DNA from: a virus
Lineage: Duplodnaviria; Heunggongvirae; Uroviricota; Caudoviricetes
IMG/VR virus record: IMGVR_UViG_2872698443_000002
Length of the DNA: 35,230 bases
Reading direction: 5' to 3' (one strand)
In this document: in pieces, positions 1-35,230 of the stretch
Layout of the letters: each line of letters begins with the position of its first letter
How positions within the stretch are numbered: the first letter of the stretch is position 1
The notes under the pieces: generated by a model
Seen by the model: the letters and a program-made list of their open reading frames with translations, nothing else
Told to the model about the DNA's origin: nothing
Databases searched by the model: none
Translations under genes and position numbers: made by a program

Positions 1-1032
1 TCAATCGCGTCTCAGCTGGGGTAAGCGAGACATCTTGGCGGGTTGATAAGCTATAGTGATCAAGAACTGAGAATACTTGAACCAATTCTCTAGAATCCCT
101 TCACCATATATCAAAATTTTATCTTCTATAGGGAAGTACAAGTTTACCACTTCATTTCTGCAAGTATCCAAGAAGGCGTAGGTTATCTCTTCTAAGGATT
201 GCAGTGATTCGTACAGAGTGCCAAAATCATAAAATGGTGAATAAACTTGGTATTTATTATAACTATCATTTATTACAAATGACTTTTTATAATGAAATCC
301 ACCTAAACACAACAGTTTACAAGTTTTTTCATAAATAATCATAACTCCTACAAATATTCTCATCTTTGTTGTGCAAAGTTCCTCTGTAGGATGTATTTGA
401 TTTTCACTCTCGGATAATTGCTTGAGTCTTGCGTTGATTTCTACCCAACATTTGTGTAAATCAATAACAAATTGCTCATTAATATCTAATTGTTGAGAAT
501 CATCAGGCGTAGATTGTGGGTATGCTTTTCTATATAATTCTTGTGGATGTTTTATAAAATGTTGGTAGATTGCTTCAGCTTGAGCTTCCTGAACCGGGTA
601 GTAGCTGCCTATTCTTTTTCCTTCGATTTTTTTATATAAATCAAGATGAAATTTCATGTGGTTGTAATATAAATCTACCCTGTTTTTCCTTTCTGCCTCT
701 GAGATCTGTTTTTCTGTTTGTTTGGTTCTGTGTAGGTTGTTTACTATTGAAACTAAAGGTACTGCAGATGCAAGGATGAGTAATGGTAATTTCGAGATAT
801 CTAAAAATCTCTCATAACCGTGACTTGTAAGACTAAAAGAGTGTATTTTATCTATCCAGACAAAAGAACCAAAGTAAAGGCTGGTGAATAAAGGTAGGCC
901 TATTGCAGCCCAGAACAAGGGTTGTTGGAACAAGCTTCTATGATCGAGAACATAAAGTCGATATTTTATAAATAAGAATATACAACCTAATAAAACGGAT
1001 AGGTACATAAATGTGCTAATGCTTTTTTCCAT
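1..1032 (-). CDS. hypothetical membrane protein; AT-rich cargo gene immediately downstream of int
   Basis: 343-aa ORF. The first ~100 aa carry three hydrophobic helix-like stretches, followed by a ~240-aa soluble region with no motif I recognise. Its ATG starts 2 nt after the int stop (tgaTAATGg). Visibly more AT-rich than the phage backbone. Confidence 0.6.
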   Translation of the reverse strand: MEKSISTFMYLSVLLGCIFLFIKYRLYVLDHRSLFQQPLFWAAIGLPLFTSLYFGSFVWIDKIHSFSLTSHGYERFLDISKLPLLILASAVPLVSIVNNLHRTKQTEKQISEAERKNRVDLYYNHMKFHLDLYKKIEGKRIGSYYPVQEAQAEAIYQHFIKHPQELYRKAYPQSTPDDSQQLDINEQFVIDLHKCWVEINARLKQLSESENQIHPTEELCTTKMRIFVGVMIIYEKTCKLLCLGGFHYKKSFVINDSYNKYQVYSPFYDFGTLYESLQSLEEITYAFLDTCRNEVVNLYFPIEDKILIYGEGILENWFKYSQFLITIAYQPAKMSRLPQLRRD

Positions 1033-9389: not shown

Positions 9390-9578
9390 ATGCAGGACTA
9401 TTTTTTGGAGTCTTTGAAGCTCCAGCGCATTGATTTTTTTCTTAAGCTTGTAGCGGCTAGTGAGTGTAGTGATGAAGAGAAGGGGCTGGCTCTGCAGTGG
9501 GTTTCTGAACTGACAGATGAACTCATGGCAAAAATCAGAACCCACGAATACAACCGCTCAATGGATGTCATCAGCTGA
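9390..9578 (+). CDS. tum-like SOS antirepressor, N-terminal portion (possibly one half of a split tum)
   Basis: 62-aa ORF directly downstream of the LexA box. Size and position fit the N-terminal half of a 186 Tum-like protein. Confidence 0.45.
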   Translation: MQDYFLESLKLQRIDFFLKLVAASECSDEEKGLALQWVSELTDELMAKIRTHEYNRSMDVIS

Positions 9579-9588
9579 GGTGACTTTT

Positions 9589-9822
9589 ATGCGCATTGAA
9601 ATAATGATCGATAAAGAGCAGAAGATTAGCCAGTCTACACTGGACGCCCTTGAATCCGAGCTTTACCGCAATCTGCGCCCCCTGTATCCCAAAACGGTAA
9701 TTCGTATCCGCAAAGGTAGCTCTAACGGTGTGGAACTTACCGGATTGCAACTGGACGAAGAAAGAAAACAAGTGATGAAAATTATGCAGAAGGTGTGGGA
9801 AGACGACAGCTGGCTGCATTAA
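9589..9822 (+). CDS. DinI-like protein
   Basis: 77 aa, MRIEIMIDKEQKISQSTLDALESELYRNLRPLYP...VMKIMQKVWEDDSWLH, resembling E. coli DinI (MRIEVTIAK...ETWESADDWF). RBS GAGG at 9576..9579. Its frame stays open upstream to 9517, overlapping the previous ORF. Confidence 0.8.
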   Translation: MRIEIMIDKEQKISQSTLDALESELYRNLRPLYPKTVIRIRKGSSNGVELTGLQLDEERKQVMKIMQKVWEDDSWLH

Positions 9823-10033
9823 GAAACGTTGCTGGCGTCTGAACCTGCTTCTGGCGTCAGCAAGGTTGAACCGCGAGCCTTGAGAGGCGTTAACCATAAG
9901 TAAAAAGACAGTAATCACTTGATTATCTATCAGGGCGAGACCTATGCTGCACTTTTAGTTATAACTCATAATGTATTGAAATTATTAGAATATATGTCAT
10001 TCTTAAAATGTGTATGCTTATCAAGGAGCAAGA

Positions 10034-10906
10034 ATGAAACGTGGCATTGTAGCTAATCCTAATGAAATGAGTTTTCATAGAAATAATAGTACGGTCTATC
10101 TTGGGGCAGGTTTAACTGAGCAGGATATTAATTATTTCTGCTTTTACTGGGATGATGTGGTTATTCTAGATAGTGAAAATATTCACTCGATTGTGCCTAA
10201 AGAAAAAGAATTATTAGATAATGGGGTATTACGTAGACCTATTATGAAACATGATGGTATGCTGAATATCCAAGACTTTCCATTTTTATATACGGAATTT
10301 CAGTTGCAGACATTGGATGAATTCAGGAAGAACGAGCCTGCTACTTATTGGCACTTTCATCAAACAGGGGAAAATTTAATATATGATAAAGAACAGAAAA
10401 CGGCCCTTCAGTTGAGATTGGAGTTGTTTAATGTTCTGAGAATTCCTGATAAAGATGCTCATATAGAAGATATATTACGTTTTAAAGATGATTGTCAGGA
10501 TGATCTTAATGCGTTACATGAGTACTTAGAAAAACTGTATACTGAAGTCCTTTATTCTAGAGACCCTAATCTAACGAGGGCTAAAAATTTTTCTTTATTA
10601 CAAGAGGCTGTAGTTAATCTTGATAAAGCTATCGAAGGGAAATGGAGAAATCCTATCAGAATGGGAGTCAAAGCCAATCCAGAAGTAGATGGTGGGCAGG
10701 TTATGGAATTTTTAAAACCGTTGTACCATGCTGCTATTGCTGGTTATTCAGGCGGTATTATTCCCGGTATGGTTACAGCCTTGGCAACCGCAATTCCAAG
10801 TTTTATAAAAATCCAACCAGAATGGGTGGGCTTTAGAGATAAGGGGCCTAAAGAATTAGCTTATCTTACCAAAGCAACGCATAAGGGGTTGATTAAGAGA
10901 GCTTAA
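10034..10906 (+). CDS. hypothetical protein; AT-rich cargo ORF in the A-to-cos variable region
   Basis: 290 aa from ATG 10034 (RBS AAGGAG 6 nt upstream; an upstream GTG at 10010 is also possible). Visibly AT-rich. C-terminal glycine-rich hydrophobic segment AAIAGYSGGIIPGMVTALATAIPSF. No catalytic motif recognised. Confidence 0.6.
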   Translation: MKRGIVANPNEMSFHRNNSTVYLGAGLTEQDINYFCFYWDDVVILDSENIHSIVPKEKELLDNGVLRRPIMKHDGMLNIQDFPFLYTEFQLQTLDEFRKNEPATYWHFHQTGENLIYDKEQKTALQLRLELFNVLRIPDKDAHIEDILRFKDDCQDDLNALHEYLEKLYTEVLYSRDPNLTRAKNFSLLQEAVVNLDKAIEGKWRNPIRMGVKANPEVDGGQVMEFLKPLYHAAIAGYSGGIIPGMVTALATAIPSFIKIQPEWVGFRDKGPKELAYLTKATHKGLIKRA

Positions 10907-21913: not shown

Positions 21914-22511
21914 TCTGCTGCCACCGGGTTCAACTTCACTGGAGCGCCGACTGGCGCAAACCTGTAGCGGGATTTCTGATTTGCAGGTACCGCTGCGTGA
22001 CTTGTGGAATCCGGCTACCTGTCCGGTCAGCTTCCTGCCTTATCTCGCCTGGGCGTTCTCTGTGGATCGCTGGGACGAGGGCTGGACAGAAAGCGTCAAA
22101 CGCCAGGTAGTGAAGGATGCTTTTTATATTCATCAGCATAAAGGAACCACCAGTGCCGTGCGGCGGGTGGTGGAACCGTTCGGATTCCTGATCCGCATTA
22201 TTGAGTGGTGGCAGACCGGAGAAACACCGGGCACGTTTCGCCTGGATATCGGCGTGCAGGACCAGGGCATCACTGAAGATACCTATCTGGAACTTGAGCG
22301 ACTGATAAGCGATGCCAAACCATGTAGCCGCCACATGATCGGCATGTCCATCAATCTGCAGACCAGCGGCCCGCATTGGGTGGGAGCCGCCAGCTATCTT
22401 GGCGAAGAAATCACGATCTATCCGTATATCAACGAAACGATTATTTCCGGTGGCACCGCGCATGAAGGCGGGGCGGTCCATGTTATTGACACAATGAGAG
22501 TGAATCCATGA
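21906..22511 (+). CDS. I: baseplate/tail protein gpI
   Basis: 201 aa, overlaps the J end and the H start. Confidence 0.85.
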   Translation: MNSLLPPGSTSLERRLAQTCSGISDLQVPLRDLWNPATCPVSFLPYLAWAFSVDRWDEGWTESVKRQVVKDAFYIHQHKGTTSAVRRVVEPFGFLIRIIEWWQTGETPGTFRLDIGVQDQGITEDTYLELERLISDAKPCSRHMIGMSINLQTSGPHWVGAASYLGEEITIYPYINETIISGGTAHEGGAVHVIDTMRVNP

Positions 22512-24031
22512 GCACAAAATTTTATACCCTGCTGACGGATATTGGCGCGGCGAAACTTGCCAGCGCCGCCGCGCTCGGTGTGCCGCTAAAAATTACCCAT
22601 ATGGCGGTCGGCGATGGCGGTGGAGTATTGCCAACGCCGGACGCAAAGCAGACGGCACTGGTAAATGAGAAACGCCGGGCTGCGCTGAATATGCTTTATA
22701 TCGACCCGCAGAACAGCAGCCAGATTATTGCCGAACAGGTGATCCCTGAAAACGAGGGCGGTTGGTGGATACGTGAAGTGGGCTTGTTTGATGAGTCCGG
22801 GGCATTGATTGCCGTGGGCAACTGCCCGGAAAGCTATAAGCCGCAACTGGCTGAAGGTAGCGGGCGCACTCAGACCGTGCGCATGGTGCTGATTACCAGC
22901 AGCACGGACAATATCACCCTGAAAATCGACCCTGCTGTAGTGCTGGCAACCCGCAAGTATGTGGATGACAAGGCACTGGAGCTGAAGGTGTACGCGGATG
23001 ATCAGATGGCAAAACATCTTGCCGCACCGGACCCGCATTCACAGTACGCGCCAAAAGCCAGCCCGACATTTACCGGAACCCCCAAAGCGCCAACGCCAGC
23101 GGCGGGGAATAATACCACGCAGGTTGCGACCACTGCGTTTGTACAGGCGGCACTGACGGCCCTTATTAATGGTGCGCCAGCCACGCTGGACACGCTGAAA
23201 GAAATAGCCGCAGCCATTAACAATGATCCGAATTTCAGTACCACCATTAACAATGCGCTGGCACTAAAAGCACCGTTGTCGAGTCCGGCACTCACCGGAA
23301 CGCCAACAGCCCCCACGGCGGCGCAGTCGGTCAACAATACACAGATTGCCACTACGGCTTTTGTGAAATCGGCGATTGCAGGAATGGTGGGTTCTGCACC
23401 TGCTGCACTGGATACACTGAACGAACTGGCGGCGGCACTGGGGAATGATCCGAACTTTGCCACGACAATGCTTAATGCGCTGGCAGGTAAACAACCGCTG
23501 GACAATACGCTTACCAATTTGAGTGGAAAGGATGTGGCTGGTCTTCTCGCATACCTTGGTTTGGGAGAAGGTGCTCCAGCTATTGGCGTTCCGTTCTTCT
23601 GGCCGTCCGCCGCAATGCCAGATACCGTAATCGAAAGCTGGTCCGGCATGGTGTTTTTGAAGTTCAACGGCGCGAAATTCTCTGCCACTGATTACCCTGT
23701 GCTGGCGAAAGTGTTTCCTTCGCTGGTATTACCTGAAGCCCGCGGTGATTTCATTCGTATCTGGGATGATGGTCGTGGTGTAGATAGTGGACGTGGATTA
23801 CTTAGTACGCAGTCTGACCTGATGAAACAATTTACTTTGCAATACTACGGTCCTTCTGCTGGTACTGGAACAAGAATGGTTTTCGCCCTCCAGAGTAATG
23901 CGAACGGCATATATACGAGTGGTATTAGTCAGAATGATGGTAGTGGCACCGCTGCGGCTTTTAATGTACCAGGCGGCACCGAAACACGCCCACGTAACAT
24001 TGCATTCAACTTTTTAGTAAGGGCTAAATAA
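22508..24031 (+). CDS. H: tail fibre protein gpH (constant N-terminal part plus currently expressed variable C-terminal cassette)
   Basis: 507 aa. Contains two tandem ~57-aa repeats (...SPTFTGTPKAPT...NDPNF / ...SPALTGTPTAPT...NDPNF). A gix-like crossover site lies inside the gene at 23544..23569. Confidence 0.85.
   Translation: MSTKFYTLLTDIGAAKLASAAALGVPLKITHMAVGDGGGVLPTPDAKQTALVNEKRRAALNMLYIDPQNSSQIIAEQVIPENEGGWWIREVGLFDESGALIAVGNCPESYKPQLAEGSGRTQTVRMVLITSSTDNITLKIDPAVVLATRKYVDDKALELKVYADDQMAKHLAAPDPHSQYAPKASPTFTGTPKAPTPAAGNNTTQVATTAFVQAALTALINGAPATLDTLKEIAAAINNDPNFSTTINNALALKAPLSSPALTGTPTAPTAAQSVNNTQIATTAFVKSAIAGMVGSAPAALDTLNELAAALGNDPNFATTMLNALAGKQPLDNTLTNLSGKDVAGLLAYLGLGEGAPAIGVPFFWPSAAMPDTVIESWSGMVFLKFNGAKFSATDYPVLAKVFPSLVLPEARGDFIRIWDDGRGVDSGRGLLSTQSDLMKQFTLQYYGPSAGTGTRMVFALQSNANGIYTSGISQNDGSGTAAAFNVPGGTETRPRNIAFNFLVRAK
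23544..23569. repeat. invertase crossover site, left (TTCTCGCATACCTTGGTTTGGGAGAA), inside H
   Basis: 26-bp imperfect dyad. It matches the reverse complement of the 25624..25649 site at 18 of 26 positions, including the central ACnTTGGTTT, and the codon phase is identical in both. Confidence 0.6.
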
Positions 24032-24624
24032 TGAAACCTGTTTTTGATAAAAATGGGCTGGCTACAGTGCCGGGTGATATGCGTTGTTTTTATTATGATG
24101 CAGTAACGTCTGAATATACTGGCTGGTCTGATGAATATATTAATACTGGTGTAAGTATGCCCGCCTGTTCCACTGGTATTGACCCGGGCGAATACATTCC
24201 GGGGAAAGTGGCAGTATTTACGGGTAAGGGATGGAGCCATGAAGAAGACCACCGCAATGAGACTGCTTACTCAATCGAAAATGGCGCAGCTGTTACAGTG
24301 GATTATATCGGTGCCATCAAAGACGCTTATGTCACGCTTTCACCGTTAACGCCATACGATAAATGGGATGGTGAGAAATGGGTGACAGATACTGAGGCAC
24401 AGCATAGTGCCTCAGTAGACGCGGCAGAAGCACAGCGCCAGTCGCTGATTGATGCTGCAATGGCTTCCATCAGTCTGATTCAACTGAAATTGCAGGCCGG
24501 GCGGAAGCTGACGCAGGCAGAAACAACCCGACTTAACGCCGTGCTGGATTACATTGACGCGGTGACGGCAACAGATACCAGCACCGCGCCGGATATCATC
24601 TGGCCTGAACAGCCGGAGGCGTAG
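24031..24624 (+). CDS. G: tail fibre assembly chaperone gpG (Tfa), expressed orientation
   Basis: 197 aa directly after H. Its C-terminus (...DYIDAVTATDTSTAPDIIWPEQPEA) resembles that of the convergent tfa copy. Confidence 0.8.
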   Translation: MKPVFDKNGLATVPGDMRCFYYDAVTSEYTGWSDEYINTGVSMPACSTGIDPGEYIPGKVAVFTGKGWSHEEDHRNETAYSIENGAAVTVDYIGAIKDAYVTLSPLTPYDKWDGEKWVTDTEAQHSASVDAAEAQRQSLIDAAMASISLIQLKLQAGRKLTQAETTRLNAVLDYIDAVTATDTSTAPDIIWPEQPEA

Positions 24625-25030
24625 GCCATTCAATATCTGGAGCACTGGAAATATCAACCATTTCCAGTGCGTCCAGATAATCAAACCAGGCGTTCAAAAG
24701 TGCTTCTTCATCTGGCTTGATGCGTTTGAGCGCCAGTCTTGTCCGTAGCATCTCTGTTTCCGATTTCACTTCTGATATCAGAAATACTTTTTTGACTTCC
24801 GCCTGATGCACCAATTCCTCATGGGTAGGCAGAGTGACATTCACCCAGGCAGGTCGACCTTTGACACTACCGAGTTCTTTTCCTTCCGGAGCCGGTTTCA
24901 TCCAGTATTTATCACGCTCTGAATCCGTCAGTTTAACGATATCGTCCGGCCATGTTCCGGCGGCGATATAGCCGTCTTTCATATCCAGAGGATAAAACGC
25001 CAACGTTGTGGCTGAGAAGCACATATCCAT
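24596..25030 (-). CDS. alternative tail fibre assembly chaperone (tfa'), silent orientation
   Basis: 144 aa, convergent with G with 3' ends overlapping; C-terminus (...DYLDALEMVDISSAPDIEWPTPP) is related to G. Confidence 0.7.
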   Translation of the reverse strand: MDMCFSATTLAFYPLDMKDGYIAAGTWPDDIVKLTDSERDKYWMKPAPEGKELGSVKGRPAWVNVTLPTHEELVHQAEVKKVFLISEVKSETEMLRTRLALKRIKPDEEALLNAWFDYLDALEMVDISSAPDIEWPTPPAVQAR

Positions 25031-25032
25031 AA

Positions 25033-25677
25033 TTAAAATCCTATCGCTAGCCAGGTGGTGGCGTTATTATCGGGAAGGAGCACTCTGTCTGATGTGTTGC
25101 TTAACACGCAAATCTGTGTGGCATTAAATCCGACATTCGTTATAGCATTAGCTGTCCACACTGATGTCGTTTGTCCGCCGCCCGGCGAAGACTCGCCGAC
25201 AAACAGTGGTGGTCTTGTGAAAGCCACCGGGAATTTTACGTAGACATCTGTTGGTGTAATCTCTGATAGCCCCCACTGTATAATCATGCCGGACGGTAAC
25301 TTCTGATATCCATTAGTTGACGGTGAACTACCAAAATCAGCAGGTAGCCCGCGCACCAAATCGGCATCAAGCCCTGACCCGGAACCATCAACCTGAAGCA
25401 GTTTTGTCAGTATTGCCTGCGCCGTTACCTGTTCTTCAAGAGCAAGACTTCCTCCTTTGTTTTGCAGATATACGTATTTTGCGGCACCGTCGACTTTAAA
25501 AGCGATAGCAAATTGTTTCTTCTGTTCATCATATGCCAGCCAAAGACTATCCTCTGGCCTGCCAGACTCAAACACGAAAGTCGAGAATCTGTTATCTGTC
25601 TTATCTCTCTTCAGGTTCAGTAATTCCGGTAAACCAACGTTTATGAAAATGCAGAGATAACGGCTAACTGGCATCAT
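25033..25677 (-). CDS. alternative tail-fibre variable C-terminal cassette (promoterless, silent orientation)
   Basis: Reading frame open through the crossover site. Sequence after the site (...IFINVGLPELLNLKRDK...) parallels H at its crossover (...LLAYLGLGEGAP...). The functional part is about 25033..25636; residues upstream of the site are read-through only. Confidence 0.65.
   Translation of the reverse strand: MMPVSRYLCIFINVGLPELLNLKRDKTDNRFSTFVFESGRPEDSLWLAYDEQKKQFAIAFKVDGAAKYVYLQNKGGSLALEEQVTAQAILTKLLQVDGSGSGLDADLVRGLPADFGSSPSTNGYQKLPSGMIIQWGLSEITPTDVYVKFPVAFTRPPLFVGESSPGGGQTTSVWTANAITNVGFNATQICVLSNTSDRVLLPDNNATTWLAIGF
25624..25649. repeat. invertase crossover site, right (TTCCGGTAAACCAACGTTTATGAAAA), gix/hix-like
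   Basis: Closely resembles Gin/Hin-family recombination sites (compare gix TTCCTGTAAACCGAGGTTTTGGATAA); inverted relative to the site in H; about 55 bp upstream of the invertase gene. Confidence 0.65.
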
Positions 25678-25704
25678 CCCCGGTTTTTATTCAGGGGATT
25701 GATC

Positions 25705-26271
25705 ATGCTTATTGGCTATGTACGCGTGTCAACAAATGACCAGAACACCGATTTGCAACGTAATGCACTGAACTGAGCGGGATGTGAGCGGATTTTTGAG
25801 GACAAAATCAGTGGCACTAAGTCCGACAGACCGGGACTGAAAAAACTGCTCAGGACATTATCGGCAGGTGACACTCTGGTTGTCTGGAAGCTGGACAGGT
25901 TGGGGCGCAGTATGCGGCATCTCGTTACGCTGATAGAAGAGCTGCGCCAGCGTGGCGTGAATTTCCGAAGCCTGACTGACAGTATTGATACCAGTACCCC
26001 AATGGGCCGTTTCTTTTTTCATGTCATGGGGGCCCTGGCTGAAATGGAGCGCGAACTGATAGTTGAACGTACCAGGGCGGGGCTGGCTGCAGCTCGCGCC
26101 AAAGGCAGAGTAGGTGGACGCCGTCCTAAGTTGATCACCGAACAGTGGGCACAGATTGGACGTTTACTCGAGGCCGGAGAATCAAGACAGCGTATTGCAC
26201 TGATTTTTGATGTAGGTGTTTCCACAATTTATAGAAAATTTCCGGCAAATAAGAGCAATGAATCCCCCTGA
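25705..26271 (+). pseudogene. Gin/Pin/Hin-family serine DNA invertase with in-frame TGA at codon 24
   Basis: MLIGYVRVSTNDQNTDLQRNALN-stop (TGA 25774..25776), then the same frame continues AGCERIFEDKISG...LVVWKLDRLGRS...FRSLTDSIDT...GRFFFHVMGALAEMERELIVERT... to 26271. This is a full-length invertase apart from the single stop, which falls where Gin/Hin have a Cys/Ser codon. Confidence 0.8.
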
Positions 26272-26319
26272 ATCAGCATTATGTTGATTATCCCTGCAAG
26301 CAGACAAATACCGTCATTT

Positions 26320-26337
26320 TGTATGAATAACGGTACA
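26320..26337. promoter_or_regulatory. Ogr-type late-promoter site (TGT-N12-ACA) upstream of FI
   Basis: TGTatgaataacggtACA, centred about 86 bp upstream of the FI start. Confidence 0.5.
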
Positions 26338-26413
26338 ACTGCGATTAGCTGTTTGTCAGGCACAATCACTTCAACATAGGGCGAAGCCTAATCCAATCAG
26401 GAGGTTCGCCACT

Positions 26414-27586
26414 ATGGCTCAGGATTACCACCACGGGGTGCGCGTTGTTGAAGTCAACGAAGGCACCCGATCCATTACCACGGTGAGCACCGCCATCGTG
26501 GGTATGGTCTGCACGGGCGATGATGCCGATGCAAAAATGTTTCCTCTTAATAAACCCGTGCTGATCACTGATGTGCTGACTGCCAGCGGTAAAGCGGGTG
26601 AGTCCGGTACTCTGGCCCGTTCGCTGGATGCCATCGCTGACCAGGCAAAACCCGTGACCGTTGTTGTGCGTGTGCCGCAGGGTGAAACGGAAGACGAAAC
26701 CACGACCAATATCATCGGCGCAGTGACTGCTGAAGGTAAAAAAACAGGTATGAAAGCCCTGTTATCTGCCCAGTCACAGCTCGGCGTTAAACCGCGCATT
26801 CTCGGCGTGCCAGGCCACGATAACAAAGCCGTTGCGACTGAGTTGCTGAGCGTGGCGCAAAGCCTGCGTGGGTTTGCTTACCTGTCAGCGTATGGCTGCA
26901 AGACGGTACAGGAGGCGATCACTTACCGTGAAAACTTCAGCCAGCGCGAAGGGATGCTGATCTGGCCTGACTTTACGGGCTGGGACACGGTGCTGAATGC
27001 CGAAGCAACGGCATATGCCACCGCCCGTGCGCTCGGTCTGCGCGCCAAAATTGATGAGCAGACCGGATGGCACAAAAGCCTGTCCAACGTGGGAGTGAAC
27101 GGTGTCACCGGAATTTCTGCTGATGTGTTCTGGGATCTGCAGGACCCGGCAACCGATGCAGGTCTGCTTAACCAGAACGACGTTACCACGCTTATCCGCA
27201 AAGACGGTTTCCGCTTCTGGGGTTCCCGCTGTCTGAGCGATGACCCGCTCTTTGCCTTCGAAAACTACACCCGCACGGCGCAGGTACTGATGGACACGAT
27301 GGCAGAAGCGCACATGTGGGCAGTGGACAAACCGCTGAATCCGTCGCTGGCCCGCGACATTATCGAAGGTATCCGCGCCAAAATGCGCAGCCTGGTCAGT
27401 CAGGGGTATCTCATTGGTGGTGATTGCTGGCTGGACGAGTCGGTGAACGACAAAGACACTCTGAAAGCCGGGAAACTCACTATCGACTACGACTACACGC
27501 CAGTGCCGCCACTTGAAAACCTGATGCTGCGTCAGCGCATCACCGATCAGTACCTGGTGAATTTCGCCAGCCAGGTCAGCGCGTAA
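26414..27586 (+). CDS. FI: contractile tail sheath protein gpFI
   Basis: 390 aa, first gene of the F operon; size as P2 FI. Confidence 0.9.
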
Positions 27587-33251: not shown

Positions 33252-33319
33252 AGTGTTCTCAATATTGATATTTTGTGTATCATTACAATGATTCTGATAG
33301 CAAAGGTAGGGATCTGGAT

Positions 33320-33538
33320 ATGATGAATTGTCCAAAGTGTGGTCATGCGGCACACACAAGGAGCAGTTTTCAAGTAACTGAAAGCACCAAAGAGCGTTAC
33401 TGCCAGTGCCAAAATATTAACTGCGGGAGCACTTTTGTTACCCATGAAACAGTGGTCCGGTTTATTGTGACACCCGCACTGATTGCTACTGCTCCTCCAC
33501 ATCCATTGCCAGGTGGTCAGGGGCATATGAATTTTTGA
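33320..33538 (+). CDS. ogr: Ogr/Delta-family zinc-finger late-gene activator
   Basis: 72 aa from ATG 33320 with C-x2-C...C-x-C-x4-C (MMNCPKCGHAAH...YCQCQNINCGSTF) and C-terminal ...PHPLPGGQG, typical of P2 Ogr. Confidence 0.85.
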   Translation: MMNCPKCGHAAHTRSSFQVTESTKERYCQCQNINCGSTFVTHETVVRFIVTPALIATAPPHPLPGGQGHMNF

Positions 33539-33545
33539 GAAAGAG

Positions 33546-33569
33546 AACCTGCTACGGCAGGTTTTTATT
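33546..33569 (+). terminator. rho-independent terminator after ogr
   Basis: AACCTGC-TACG-GCAGGTT hairpin followed by TTTTATT. Confidence 0.6.
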
Positions 33570-34047
33570 CATCTGGGATCTCACCCGTTTCAAGAAAATG
33601 TATAAAGCCAGGCTCATCTATGATGATTGTGCCTTTCATCCTGGCTGCCGATACTTTTGATGGGCCTGCATTGTAACCGCAACAGAGCATCTGAAGGCTT
33701 TGGGTTACAGAGGTTCTTACCGTTAATCCTTGTTCATTCGCCTTATCAACCAATCTTTCTTTATCTGCTTTCTTAAATCCGGTGAAACACACATCGAATG
33801 TATTTTTTTTCGGACCAGACTGCTTAGTGAGATGTGAGTAGTTTTCGGGGAGGAATGACGCGCATTCCTGAATGGCTTGTTCTGGTGAATCGTACTGTTT
33901 AAGAATGCGGTCTTTTCGGAAGGTTTTTATTCGATCGGTGTTCTTACAAATGCCCTGTATATGATTTTCGCTATAACTGATGCTCTGTATTGAGTGAACT
34001 CCGATACGACCATTTGCATTGATGTAAACAAAGTGAAGTTCTTCCAT
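33565..34047 (-). CDS. hypothetical two-domain protein: N-terminal WYL-like segment plus C-terminal BRCT-like domain; AT-rich cargo gene next to the attachment site
   Basis: 160 aa with RBS AGAGG 6 nt upstream. The C-terminal ~75 aa align position-by-position with the BRCT domain of NAD-dependent DNA ligase. The N-terminus (...NGRIG...GICKNTDRIKTFRKDRI) resembles the GyC...R.FR.DRI signature of WYL beta-barrels. Confidence 0.65.
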   Translation of the reverse strand: MEELHFVYINANGRIGVHSIQSISYSENHIQGICKNTDRIKTFRKDRILKQYDSPEQAIQECASFLPENYSHLTKQSGPKKNTFDVCFTGFKKADKERLVDKANEQGLTVRTSVTQSLQMLCCGYNAGPSKVSAARMKGTIIIDEPGFIHFLETGEIPDE

Positions 34048-34127
34048 GTGAAACCTCTTTGCATGATTTCAAGAGGGCGACAGGCAAGATAGACGCAAAA
34101 GTCTGTCGCCATTTTGCCGCCACTACC

Positions 34128-34160
34128 AAAGAAAAAGGGGCTACGCTTTCACGTAACCCC
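34128..34160 (-). terminator. rho-independent terminator immediately 3' of ssrA
   Basis: On the minus strand: GGGGTTACG-TGAAAG-CGTAGCCCC followed by TTTTTCTTT, starting 10 nt after the tmRNA CCA end. Confidence 0.6.
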
Positions 34161-34170
34161 TTGTTTTATT

Positions 34171-34533
34171 TGGTGGAGCTGGCGGGAGTTGAACCCGCGT
34201 CCGAAATTCCTACATCCTCGGTACTACATGCTTAGTCAGTCTTTACATTCGCTTGCCAGCTGCGGACGGACACGCCACTAACAAACTAGCCTGATTAAGT
34301 TTTAACGCTTCAACCCCAGGCAGGGCTTCCACGCGATCTCTTTTGGGTTTGACCTCTCTTGATCCCCGTCCTAAGAGCGGAGGCTAGGGAGAGAGGGCTC
34401 TAAGCAGGTTATTAAGCTGCTAAAGCGTAGTTTTCGTCGTTTGCGACTATTTTTTGCGGCTTTTTACGAGGCCAACCGCCCCTCGGCATGCACCTTGGGT
34501 TTCGCAAATCCCGTCGAATCCAGAATCAGCCCC
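34171..34533 (-). ncRNA. ssrA: tmRNA (SsrA)
   Basis: The reverse complement begins GGGGCTGATTCTGGATTCGACGGGATTTGCGAAACCC and ends ...GGTTCAACTCCCGCCAGCTCCACCA. It contains the ANDENYALAA tag-coding region (...GCAAACGACGAAAACTACGCTTTAGCAGCTTAA) and the tRNA-like 3' end. Length is 363 nt. Confidence 0.95.
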
Positions 34534-34747
34534 AATGTGTAAAGGTAAGTATACCAGATTTATGAGCGCCATGACCAGCCTCAATGGCGTTATCGTTAAA
34601 GATTTAGCACCCATGTAGCCTGATTTTTATTCGATTAAGCAATGGGATGGCAACATTTGTGTCGGATGTGATAGCCAATAAGATGTTCATTCGCGCCGCC
34701 GGAGAGGGAGGCGCGGTGAGGAACTGGTCAATAATTGGAGTGCAGGT

Positions 34748-35230
34748 TTAACGGTGGGCGTTTTTCATGATACGCGCTTTATCCACCTGCCATTCGCGCT
34801 CTTTGATATCTGAACGTTTATCGTGCTGTTTCTTACCTTTGGCGACGCCGATTTTCACTTTGCACCAGGCATTTTTCCAGTACAGGGAGAGCGCCACTAC
34901 GGTATAGCCTTCTCGATTGACGCGACCGTACAATGAGTCCAGTTCGCGCTGGTTGAGAAGTAACTTGCGGGTACGGGTAGGATCGCACACCACATGCGTG
35001 GAGGCCACTGCCATTGGCGTGATGTTTGCGCCAAACAGGAACGCTTCTCCGTCACGCAGAAGGACATAGCTGTCGCTGATATTGGCTTTTCCTGCGCGCA
35101 GGGATTTAACTTCCCAGCCTTGCAGGGCAAGTCCCGCTTCGAACTCTTCTTCGATAAAGTATTCGTGACGGGCGCGCTTGTTAAGCGCGATGGTCGCTGA
35201 ACCAGGTTTATGTGCTTTTTTCTTCGTCAT
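34748..35230 (-). CDS. smpB: SsrA-binding protein SmpB
   Basis: 160 aa, [56 protein letters not shown]..., immediately upstream of ssrA in the same orientation. Start codon is at the window edge. Confidence 0.95.

Follow-up and report, generated by a model that had tools for sequence, protein, structure and literature searches.

The window analysed here is a 35,230-nt stretch of viral DNA (Caudoviricetes; IMG/VR record IMGVR_UViG_2872698443_000002), and it carries a P2-like prophage integrated in ssrA in E. coli, the integration site also used by Fels-2. The late genes follow the P2-like order V-W-J-I-H-G ... FI-FII-E-T-U-D-ogr, accompanied by P2 A, a CI-type repressor and an integrase. Pfam matches across the prophage include Tail_P2_I, Phage_tail_fib, sheath, GPA, GPD, integrase and CI, and PHROG matches include portal and terminase. 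Annotations of related loci name V, W/gp25, baseplate, I, sheath, tube, E and tape measure, and an ogr/Delta-like gene underlies window positions 33300-35230. With int, CI, A, portal, terminase, baseplate, sheath, tube, tape measure, D and ogr present, the prophage looks complete and not cryptic.

The tail-fibre gene H (22508-24031, plus strand) codes for a 507-aa fibre in the present orientation. Its constant N-terminal part (aa 1-350; 22508..23557, plus strand, up to and including the crossover core) contains PF12571 Phage_tail_fib at aa 1-150, shows 99.4% identity to the corresponding constant part of the E. coli TUM9754 fibre, and in its aa 181-340 is 80% identical to the constant region of P1 S. 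The currently expressed C-terminal tip, Sv (H aa 351-507 plus stop; 23558..24031, plus strand), matched phrog_3100 and phrog_523 (tail fibre / tail collar fibre) and is 40% identical to e14 StfE. The H stop codon overlaps the ATG of tfa (TAATG), which is expressed in the present orientation and codes for a P2 G-like tail-fibre assembly chaperone of 197 aa (24031..24624, plus strand; PF02413 Caudo_TAP, E = 7e-28) with 62% identity to e14 TfaE. A second chaperone gene, tfa' (24596..25030, minus strand; 144 aa; PF02413, E = 8e-26), is silent in this orientation and converges with tfa, overlapping it by 29 nt; the two chaperones share 35% identity, over the C-terminal 79 aa only. The minus-strand ORF 25033-25677 carries the Gp53-like_C cassette, in which the alternative, promoterless C-terminal tip Sv' (25033..25635, minus strand; 200 aa plus stop) matched PF21882 Gp53-like_C, phrog_1396 and phrog_4209 (tail fibre). 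The domain search upheld the preliminary description of a segment of about 2.1 kb with a tip and tfa on the plus strand and an alternative tip and tfa' on the minus strand, and it confirmed a separate chaperone gene after each tip. That description had also placed the segment in the slot used by P2 for Z/fun, which is borne out by P2's own record, where fun(Z) lies between G and FI, the slot held here by the second cassette pair and the invertase gene. Sv and Sv' are unrelated in sequence (BLASTP E = 0.15) and belong to different PHROG tail-fibre families; judged from their sequences, the two tips are likely to recognize different receptors.

The segment is bracketed by two 26-bp pix/gix-like crossover sites, located exactly where they had been proposed. 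The left site (23544..23569) reads TTCTCGCATACC TT GGTTTGGGAGAA, with its core at 23556-23557, and the right site (25624..25649) reads TTCCGGTAAACC AA CGTTTATGAAAA, with its core at 25636-25637. Both are 12-2-12 imperfect palindromes, in which 12-bp half-sites surround a 2-bp core (half-site identity 10/12 on the left and 7/12 on the right), and since the matching cores read TT on the left and AA on the right, the sites are in inverted orientation. When the left site was aligned with the reverse complement of the right, 17/26 positions were identical, with TTGGTTT in common. When the whole window was scanned with a half-site consensus, exactly two sites scored at least 15, namely these two (19 and 16 of 20, respectively); the next best scored 13, and no site with a score of at least 16 was found in 40 shuffles. 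The same scan, used as a control on the Mu, P1 and e14 loci, recovered the annotated gix, cix and pix sites and no others. It took the place of a degenerate gix-like 26-mer search allowing up to 3 mismatches, which found the left site only (0 expected by chance) because the right site has 4 mismatches. A third site, as in a shufflon-like or EPEC three-repeat layout, was considered and rejected, as nothing else in the window scored above 13/20.

The two sites could also be chance resemblances, with the minus-strand cassette pair a relic of past fibre-gene recombination that has no inversion mechanism. The exact inverted repeat is just 7 nt long, and the site pair was absent from the 14 inverted pairs listed by the repeat finder, which are short chance matches. 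This absence is a limit of the tool and does not count against the sites, because the 7-nt exact core is shorter than the 9-nt seed. Against chance stands the finding that no comparable site occurs in the 40 shuffles or elsewhere in the 35-kb window. Moreover, with respect to the fibre and invertase genes, the sites occupy exactly the same positions as in Mu and e14, the distance from core to invertase ATG being 68 nt here and 67 nt in both of those. The control-validated scan, together with natural relatives in which the segment is precisely inverted at these cores (see below), already refutes the chance reading, and its probability is negligible.

From core to core the segment measures 2,078 bp. 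The core occupies codon positions 2-3 in both H and the minus-strand ORF 25033-25677, and simulated inversion gave an open 550-aa H' in which Sv' follows H codon 350, in agreement with the identical codon phase and in-frame alternative fibre of the preliminary description. The constant N-terminus lies outside a segment with two opposed tips, each with its own chaperone, and the fusion is in frame in both states.

An inversion switch should be found in a second orientation with its alternative cassette in frame, and E. coli TUM9754 and ZF31 do carry the flipped form together with the hybrid sites predicted for it. In TUM9754, the flipped junction was recovered as one contiguous 1,100-nt match with 98.4% identity, and the window ceases to be collinear with this strain at 23556-23562 and 25631-25640. 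The annotation of this strain lists an intact 550-aa tail protein, then a 144-aa chaperone and an intact 188-aa recombinase. Sv' is 99% identical to the C-terminus of that 550-aa fibre, and tfa' is 100% identical to the chaperone 3' of it. The hybrid sites of TUM9754 and ZF31, TTCTCGCATACC TT GGTTTACCGGAA and TTCTCCCAAACC AA CGTTTAAGAAAA, are those predicted for exchange at the core. The sister strains ZF34 and ZF31 have flanks of 3,455 and 3,670 nt that are 100% identical with zero mismatch, and the 2,289 nt between the sites are inverted with one mismatch. In these two strains the Sv' shaft is longer by ~204 nt, apparently through a genuine duplication; misassembly was rejected, as the copies differ at 6/211 positions and the duplication keeps the reading frame. 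Both cassettes occur, among 5,426 complete E. coli genomes, only in ZF34, in the same orientation as here, and in ZF31 and TUM9754, in the flipped one. Thus, both orientations, with exchange at the cores, exist in near-identical relatives, and the window itself shows one of them.

The same comparisons bear on the individual sites. The left site is identical in ZF34 and FDAARGOS_1248, and the natural inversion breakpoints map to it (23544-23569). For a query ending in the H constant part, the match ends at window position 23562/23563 in hundreds of E. coli genomes, and on the invertase side homology starts at 25631 in 660+ E. coli genomes. Of the two sites, the right one is more degenerate (internal symmetry 7/12, score 16/20). 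It shares its inner half, TTCCGGTAAACC, with the site of ZF34, where recombination occurs; its whole sequence has not been seen recombining, and each half is found in a recombining site (see also PMC12529663). Taken together, these results make it very probable that this P2-like (Peduoviridae) prophage carries, in the 2.1-kb locus, a programmed DNA inversion switch of the Pin/Gin type that exchanges its tail-fibre tip.

Just outside the right site, the gene at 25705..26271 (plus strand) codes for a DNA invertase of the Pin/Gin/Cin/Hin family (Resolvase, E = 2e-53, and HTH_7), a member of the small serine recombinases with 84% identity to PinE of e14, 77% to Cin and 72% to Gin. Its frame is broken by a TGA at codon 24 (25774-25776), and, taken as it reads, the sequence does not specify a functional enzyme. 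Compared with the intact gene of E. coli FDAARGOS_1248, only 1/567 nt differs, the C to A change at nt 72 that turns TGC (Cys24) into TGA. The catalytic serine (Ser9, in ...YVRVSTNDQ...) precedes the stop by 15 codons, so both the 23-aa product and any product of a downstream restart would be inactive. The TGA allele had no exact 33-mer match in 185,579 representative genomes, and none of 5,426 complete E. coli genomes carried it at 100% identity; the best match there was the intact allele. With its own invertase a one-base nonsense mutant, this copy would depend on invertase supplied in trans, as the preliminary description had implied. Most likely, the switch is locked in the Sv/tfa orientation unless PinE, PinQ or the enzyme of another P2-like prophage acts in trans. 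Inversion in trans has been published (PMC12529663).

The codon-24 TGA might instead be a sequencing or assembly error, or UGA might be read through as Trp often enough to supply the low level of invertase that such switches require, and the switch would then be fully active in cis. The gene is otherwise undecayed (566/567 nt as in the intact allele), all cis elements are intact, and the TGA allele was found in none of the other genomes searched. However, a recent real mutation would look just like this single C to A change, and the window carries no low-quality mark on the base. Read-through would also place Trp at a conserved Cys/Ser position, and its frequency at UGA is normally well below 1-2%. 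We regard a switch active in cis as unlikely; if the TGA were a sequencing error, the switch would simply be active.

A recombinational (Fis) enhancer is presumed, by homology, at the 5' end of the invertase gene (25723..25794, plus strand). This interval corresponds to gene nt 19-90, annotated as enhancer in the P1 cin record, and it is identical at 63/72 positions to pin, at 55/72 to cin and at 71/72 to the intact FDAARGOS allele. From the latter it departs only at the nonsense base, which lies inside the putative enhancer. By its sequence, the switch may depend on Fis and this enhancer.

Based on these features, the following course of events can be proposed. Late transcription would run through H, and in the present state codons 1-350 would be read into Sv to give the 507-aa fibre, with translationally coupled tfa next. 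A serine invertase acting at the two 26-bp sites would cut the central TT/AA dinucleotides, with Fis presumably bound to the enhancer just described, and strand rotation and rejoining would invert the 2,078 bp. H codon 350 would then continue in frame into the gp53-like Sv', giving a 550-aa fibre followed by tfa', and the progeny would carry a different receptor-binding tip. By analogy with Mu, P1 and carotovoricin, inversion would be expected to change host range. In this copy, the cis elements are intact and the invertase gene is the altered component (Cys24, TGC to TGA).

A short leader (25638..25677, minus strand), with an ATG at 25677 as the apparent start for the silent cassette, lies outside the segment and stays in place in either orientation; when the flip is simulated, its frame continues into Sv, giving a 171-aa ORF. 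The segment could have been taken over by the host, with the cassette ORF translated as a free-standing protein. Inversion, or a locked state, would then affect the cell and not the host range of the phage, for instance through a receptor blocked against other phages, as reported for e14 StfE2. The layout of e14 stfE is the same, with the start codon outside the site beside the invertase gene, and PGAP calls such ORFs gp53-like proteins in related prophages. There is also a precedent, as a PinQ-driven flip in e14 was reported to give StfE2, which blocks T2 adsorption (PMC12529663). Several observations speak against such a role. The prophage looks complete and not cryptic, and the leader consists of only 13 codons of sequence common to the invertase promoter region. 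A promoter and terminator scan of 22300-26500 gave nothing above shuffle expectation and no sigma-70-like promoter upstream of 25677 on the minus strand, and the ATG lacks a good Shine-Dalgarno sequence. A takeover by the host is thus highly improbable. A bolder idea, which we also hold to be very unlikely, is that the nonsense allele is more than simple decay, namely a naturally locked variant kept under the control of the invertases of other prophages, as with PinQ on e14, and that the ATG at 25677 might free the silent tip as a protein that alters susceptibility to other phages. If true, the fibre switch would be wired into a host-wide, trans-acting inversion network and would not belong to the phage alone.

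Returning to the fibre-tip switch itself, the preliminary description had likened it to the Mu G segment. This holds for the type of mechanism, but the nearest characterised relative is the P segment of e14, a cryptic prophage of E. coli K-12, with PinE (84% identity, identical half-sites), and not Mu G/Gin (72%). The site architecture of e14 is the same, and its right-site outer half beside pinE, CGTTTATGAAAA, and left-site inner half, GGTTTGGGAGAA, are identical to those here. The published e14 repeat, TTGGTTTGGGAGAAGG, is found verbatim at window positions 23556-23571, and the order of fibre, chaperone, reversed chaperone, reversed fibre tip and invertase is shared. However, e14 is a defective lambdoid remnant and the prophage here an apparently complete P2-like one, the gp53-like Sv' is without an e14 counterpart, the right-site inner half is TTCCGGTAAACC here and TTCTCCCAAACC in e14, and the invertase nonsense codon occurs here, unlike in e14. 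Mu is similar in that a constant Sc is joined to Sv or Sv', with chaperones U/U', 26-bp gix sites, and the invertase gene just outside the right site at the same spacing. It differs in being a transposable phage that is not P2-like, in the length of its G segment (~3 kb, compared with 2.08 kb here) and in its core dinucleotide (GA/TC, compared with TT/AA here); no match was obtained by tblastn of the fibre and chaperone parts of the window against the Mu locus. The cix cores of the P1 C segment read TT/AA, as here, but the 4.2-kb segment has cin on its opposite side, where the 3' end of the gene adjoins cixL. The Min system of p15B has multiple sites and cassettes. Carotovoricin Er, a P2-like tailocin of Pectobacterium, combines fibre-gene inversion with a P2-type contractile tail and a changed target range, as far as its description goes (reference 46 in PMC4272514); it is a bacteriocin and not a phage, and it is likened to the present locus by description.

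Earlier publications have described invertible fibre segments in P2-like prophages, for EPEC E2348/69, Fels-2 and the Z/fun hotspot, and these segments share family, G-FI slot and mechanism with the locus described here. Two-variant and three-repeat (four-variant) inversions have been described in such prophages (PMC4272514), the Z/fun hotspot often encodes a DNA invertase with adjacent genes inverted (10.1101/2024.10.15.618418), and Fels-2 of LT2 and LT7 differ by a fibre inversion beside fin (PMC7953296). Compared with these loci, the cassette combination here is uncommon and the window has two sites only. The switch is an ordinary one of a known kind, its probable lock being the sole local twist.

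The value of the finding is mainly practical, and the understanding of the mechanism is unchanged. Annotation pipelines mislabel such loci: in RefSeq relatives the silent tip appears as a stand-alone gp53-like protein and intact fibres as partial pseudogenes. Two receptor-binding tips are encoded, so host-range predictions and catalogues of receptor-binding proteins should count both, and assemblies of such loci may capture either orientation. The one-base nonsense allele also provides a natural control, a cis-intact, trans-dependent substrate for asking which resident invertases cross-react.

Elsewhere in the prophage, a PADLOC defence search of cargo ORFs found no match for 4-1032, 9574-9918 and 10010-10903; the single match among the ORFs searched, 33568-34047, was weak and partial.

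The tail-fibre gene H (22508-24031, 507 aa) follows a Tail_P2_I gene and has a P2-type Phage_tail_fib N-terminus. Its stop codon is overlapped by the ATG of a Caudo_TAP chaperone gene, tfa (24031-24624), beyond which lie, on the minus strand, a second Caudo_TAP chaperone gene, tfa' (24596-25030), and an ORF for an alternative Gp53-like_C fibre tip (25033-25677). The invertase gene (25705-26271, Resolvase and HTH_7 domains) and the tail sheath gene come next. These domain matches agree with the preliminary description, which placed the H C-terminus and tfa on the plus strand of an invertible segment and an alternative C-terminus with tfa' on the minus strand. It had also put the switch in the Z/fun slot of P2, and the P2 record indeed has fun(Z) between G and FI. 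The expressed tip (Sv) and the alternative tip (Sv') are without sequence relation (BLASTP E = 0.15) and match different PHROG tail-fibre families, and the likeness between tfa and tfa' is confined to the C-terminal 79 residues (35% identity). The core dinucleotide of the crossover sites occupies codon positions 2-3 in H and in the minus-strand ORF alike, and in silico inversion of 23558-25635 gave an open 550-aa fibre, in which ...AGLLAYLG is joined to LPELLNLKRD..., with the second chaperone immediately after it. The alternative cassette is therefore in frame after inversion, as had been proposed. In addition, tfa and tfa' are convergent and overlap by 29 nt (24596-24624), where a conserved C-terminal motif (PDIIWPEQPEA and PDIEWPTPPAVQAR) is encoded on both opposite strands. 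A chaperone overlap of this 29-nt type is likewise found in tfaP/tfaE of e14 and in related prophages.

The left site L (23544-23569, TTCTCGCATACC TT GGTTTGGGAGAA) and the right site R (25624-25649, TTCCGGTAAACC AA CGTTTATGAAAA) each consist of two 12-bp half-sites flanking a 2-bp core in an imperfect palindrome. The reverse complement of R matches L at 17 of 26 positions, with TTGGTTT common to both, and the cores TT in L and AA in R place the sites in inverted orientation. A generic inverted-repeat search of the window did not report the pair because the exact common core is shorter than the seed. When all 26-mers of the window were scored against the half-site consensus TTCTCNNAAACC over both halves (maximum 20), L reached 19 and R 16; these were the only two positions scoring at least 15, the next best reached 13, and the scan gave no third crossover site in the window. 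The same scan yielded no site scoring at least 16 in 40 shuffles, and when run blind on the Mu, P1, and e14 loci it recovered the annotated gix, cix, and pix sites and nothing else. These results indicate that L and R are real and specific crossover sites, so that the two inverted gix-like sites of the preliminary description are confirmed at their exact positions.

The simulated flipped junction was used as a query against 5,426 complete E. coli genomes. In E. coli TUM9754 it was found as one contiguous match (1,100 nt, 98.4% identity), and the annotation there has a 550-aa tail protein with a 144-aa chaperone after it; the remaining tip and chaperone run in reverse, and an intact 188-aa recombinase comes next. 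Collinearity between TUM9754 and the window is broken at 23556-23562 and 25631-25640, which are the two cores, and the TUM9754 sites are the predicted hybrids, one made of the left half of L and the inner half of R, the other of the remaining halves. The isolates ZF34 and ZF31, from one swine-faeces source, share one prophage, inserted at an identical place in the chromosome. The flanks match at 100% identity across 3,455 and 3,670 nt, while the 2,289 nt between the sites are inverted with a single mismatch; ZF34 has the orientation of the window (100% coverage, 97.6% identity). A second orientation, on which the earlier claim depended, thus exists in close relatives of the window copy. In hundreds of other E. 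coli genomes, similarity to the constant part of H stops at window position 23562/23563 and that on the invertase side starts at 25631, so that the L and R sites are the exact points at which tips are exchanged as modules.

Several further features of these loci were observed. The middle of the Sv tip (window 23807-23980, 174 nt) is replaced by 222 nt in TUM9754 (locus L002, 7106-7327), leaving 63% protein identity over the tip in surroundings that are 99% identical, which points to mosaic exchange within a cassette as well as at the crossover sites. Residues 181-340 of constant H (window 23048-23527) share 80% protein identity with the constant region of fibre S in phage P1, in the part labelled as the a/b repeats region in the P1 record; this likeness is a further sign of fibre-module exchange between unrelated phages. 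ZF34 (locus L001, 5914-6328) and ZF31 (locus L003, 3455-3869) contain an in-frame tandem duplication of about 204 nt (68 codons) that covers the part of the Sv' cassette nearest to the crossover site (window 25421-25628), with copies differing at 6 of 211 positions, and the flipped ZF31 fibre therefore exceeds 600 aa. RefSeq/PGAP calls the fibre gene as partial pseudogene fragments in ZF34 (L001, 3001-4306) and ZF31 (L003, 2401-3462), despite a ZF34 frame that is open over the full 507 aa, and it lists silent tips as gp53-like proteins in their own right. Invertible fibre loci thus seem subject to a systematic annotation artefact.

With the intact enzymes found in TUM9754 and ZF34 the invertase shares 97-98% identity, and codon 24 of its gene is TGA (25774-25776), where relatives have TGC or TGT and cin has AGC. 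Compared with the gene of E. coli FDAARGOS_1248, which is intact, a single base among 567 is changed (C to A at nt 72). The stop comes after the catalytic serine, Ser9, and judging from the sequence neither the 23-aa truncated peptide nor a product restarted downstream could be active. The TGA allele was not found in 185,579 representative genomes, nor at 100% identity in the 5,426 complete E. coli genomes, so the TGA reflects either an error in sequencing or a mutation of very recent origin. The mutated base falls inside the interval homologous to the annotated enhancer of the P1 cin record (gene nt 19-90), and the invertase ATG lies 68 nt from the crossover core in the window, compared with 67 nt in Mu and e14.

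The cis sites, the reading frame, the cassette pairs, and the precise natural inversions in close relatives are established by these observations. By analogy with Gin, Cin, Hin, and Pin, a serine recombinase tetramer with a Fis-bound enhancer would cleave at the 2-bp core, and the strands would rotate and then be religated. The expected outcome is a switch between H/tfa virions and H'/tfa' virions (H' being the 550-aa fibre) that would differ in receptor specificity. With the enzyme missing from the window copy, its segment should remain in the Sv/tfa state, barring action in trans by a related invertase. Cross-reaction of this kind has long been known among Gin, Cin, Hin, Pin, and Fin. The e14 segment is a documented case, with PinQ and PinE as the enzymes (PMC12529663).

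The overall reading as an invertible tail-fibre segment with two tips and two chaperones has held up on sites, frame, and natural inversions: the switch is real and was correctly interpreted, and its biology is already known. Invertible fibre loci with two and four variants occur in P2-like prophages of EPEC E2348/69 (PMC4272514), Fels-2 with fin is a P2-like prophage with an invertible fibre segment (PMC7953296), and DNA invertases are noted as frequent at the Z/fun hotspot in P2-like phages, together with inversion of the neighbouring genes (10.1101/2024.10.15.618418). A fibre gene, two chaperone genes, and an invertase gene occur together, as in the window, in dozens of deposited P2-like phage genomes. 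The comparison with the Mu G segment stands as a textbook analogue but not as the nearest relative, because the e14 P segment with PinE is the closest characterised system, with identical half-sites and 84% invertase identity (Cin 77%, Gin 72%). The sole local peculiarity of the window copy is a probable locked state.

By gene content, the window is apparently a complete P2-like prophage of E. coli, with integrase, CI repressor, replication protein A, portal, terminase, baseplate, fibre, sheath, tube, tape measure, D, and ogr. At the right end of the window the prophage abuts the 3' end of the tmRNA gene ssrA (34171-34533, minus strand, tag ANDENYALAA), followed by smpB (34748-35230, minus strand). 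Several E. coli genomes match the ogr-ssrA-smpB junction at 99.9% identity, and in 166 of the 5,426 genomes at least 80% of this stretch is covered at one place. The host is accordingly E. coli and the attachment site ssrA, which is also the reported site of Fels-2 and SopE-phi. The left end of the window does not reach attL. Just past the integrase, at the left edge, a 343-aa ORF (1-1032, minus strand) without a Pfam or PADLOC match has a full-length match to phrog_17460 (function unknown, E = 5e-203) and may be a prophage-end cargo gene. The old/tin cargo hotspot of P2, from replication gene A to the portal gene, contains here a DUF6236 gene (10010-10906, plus strand; phrog_23128, of unknown function) and a small ORF in reverse (9571-9918, minus strand), and the PADLOC search gave no defence match for either. 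Between ogr and ssrA, a 160-aa ORF (33565-34047, minus strand) without a Pfam match resembles PDC-S48, a candidate defence protein in PADLOC, weakly and in part (E = 2e-7, over 70 residues only).
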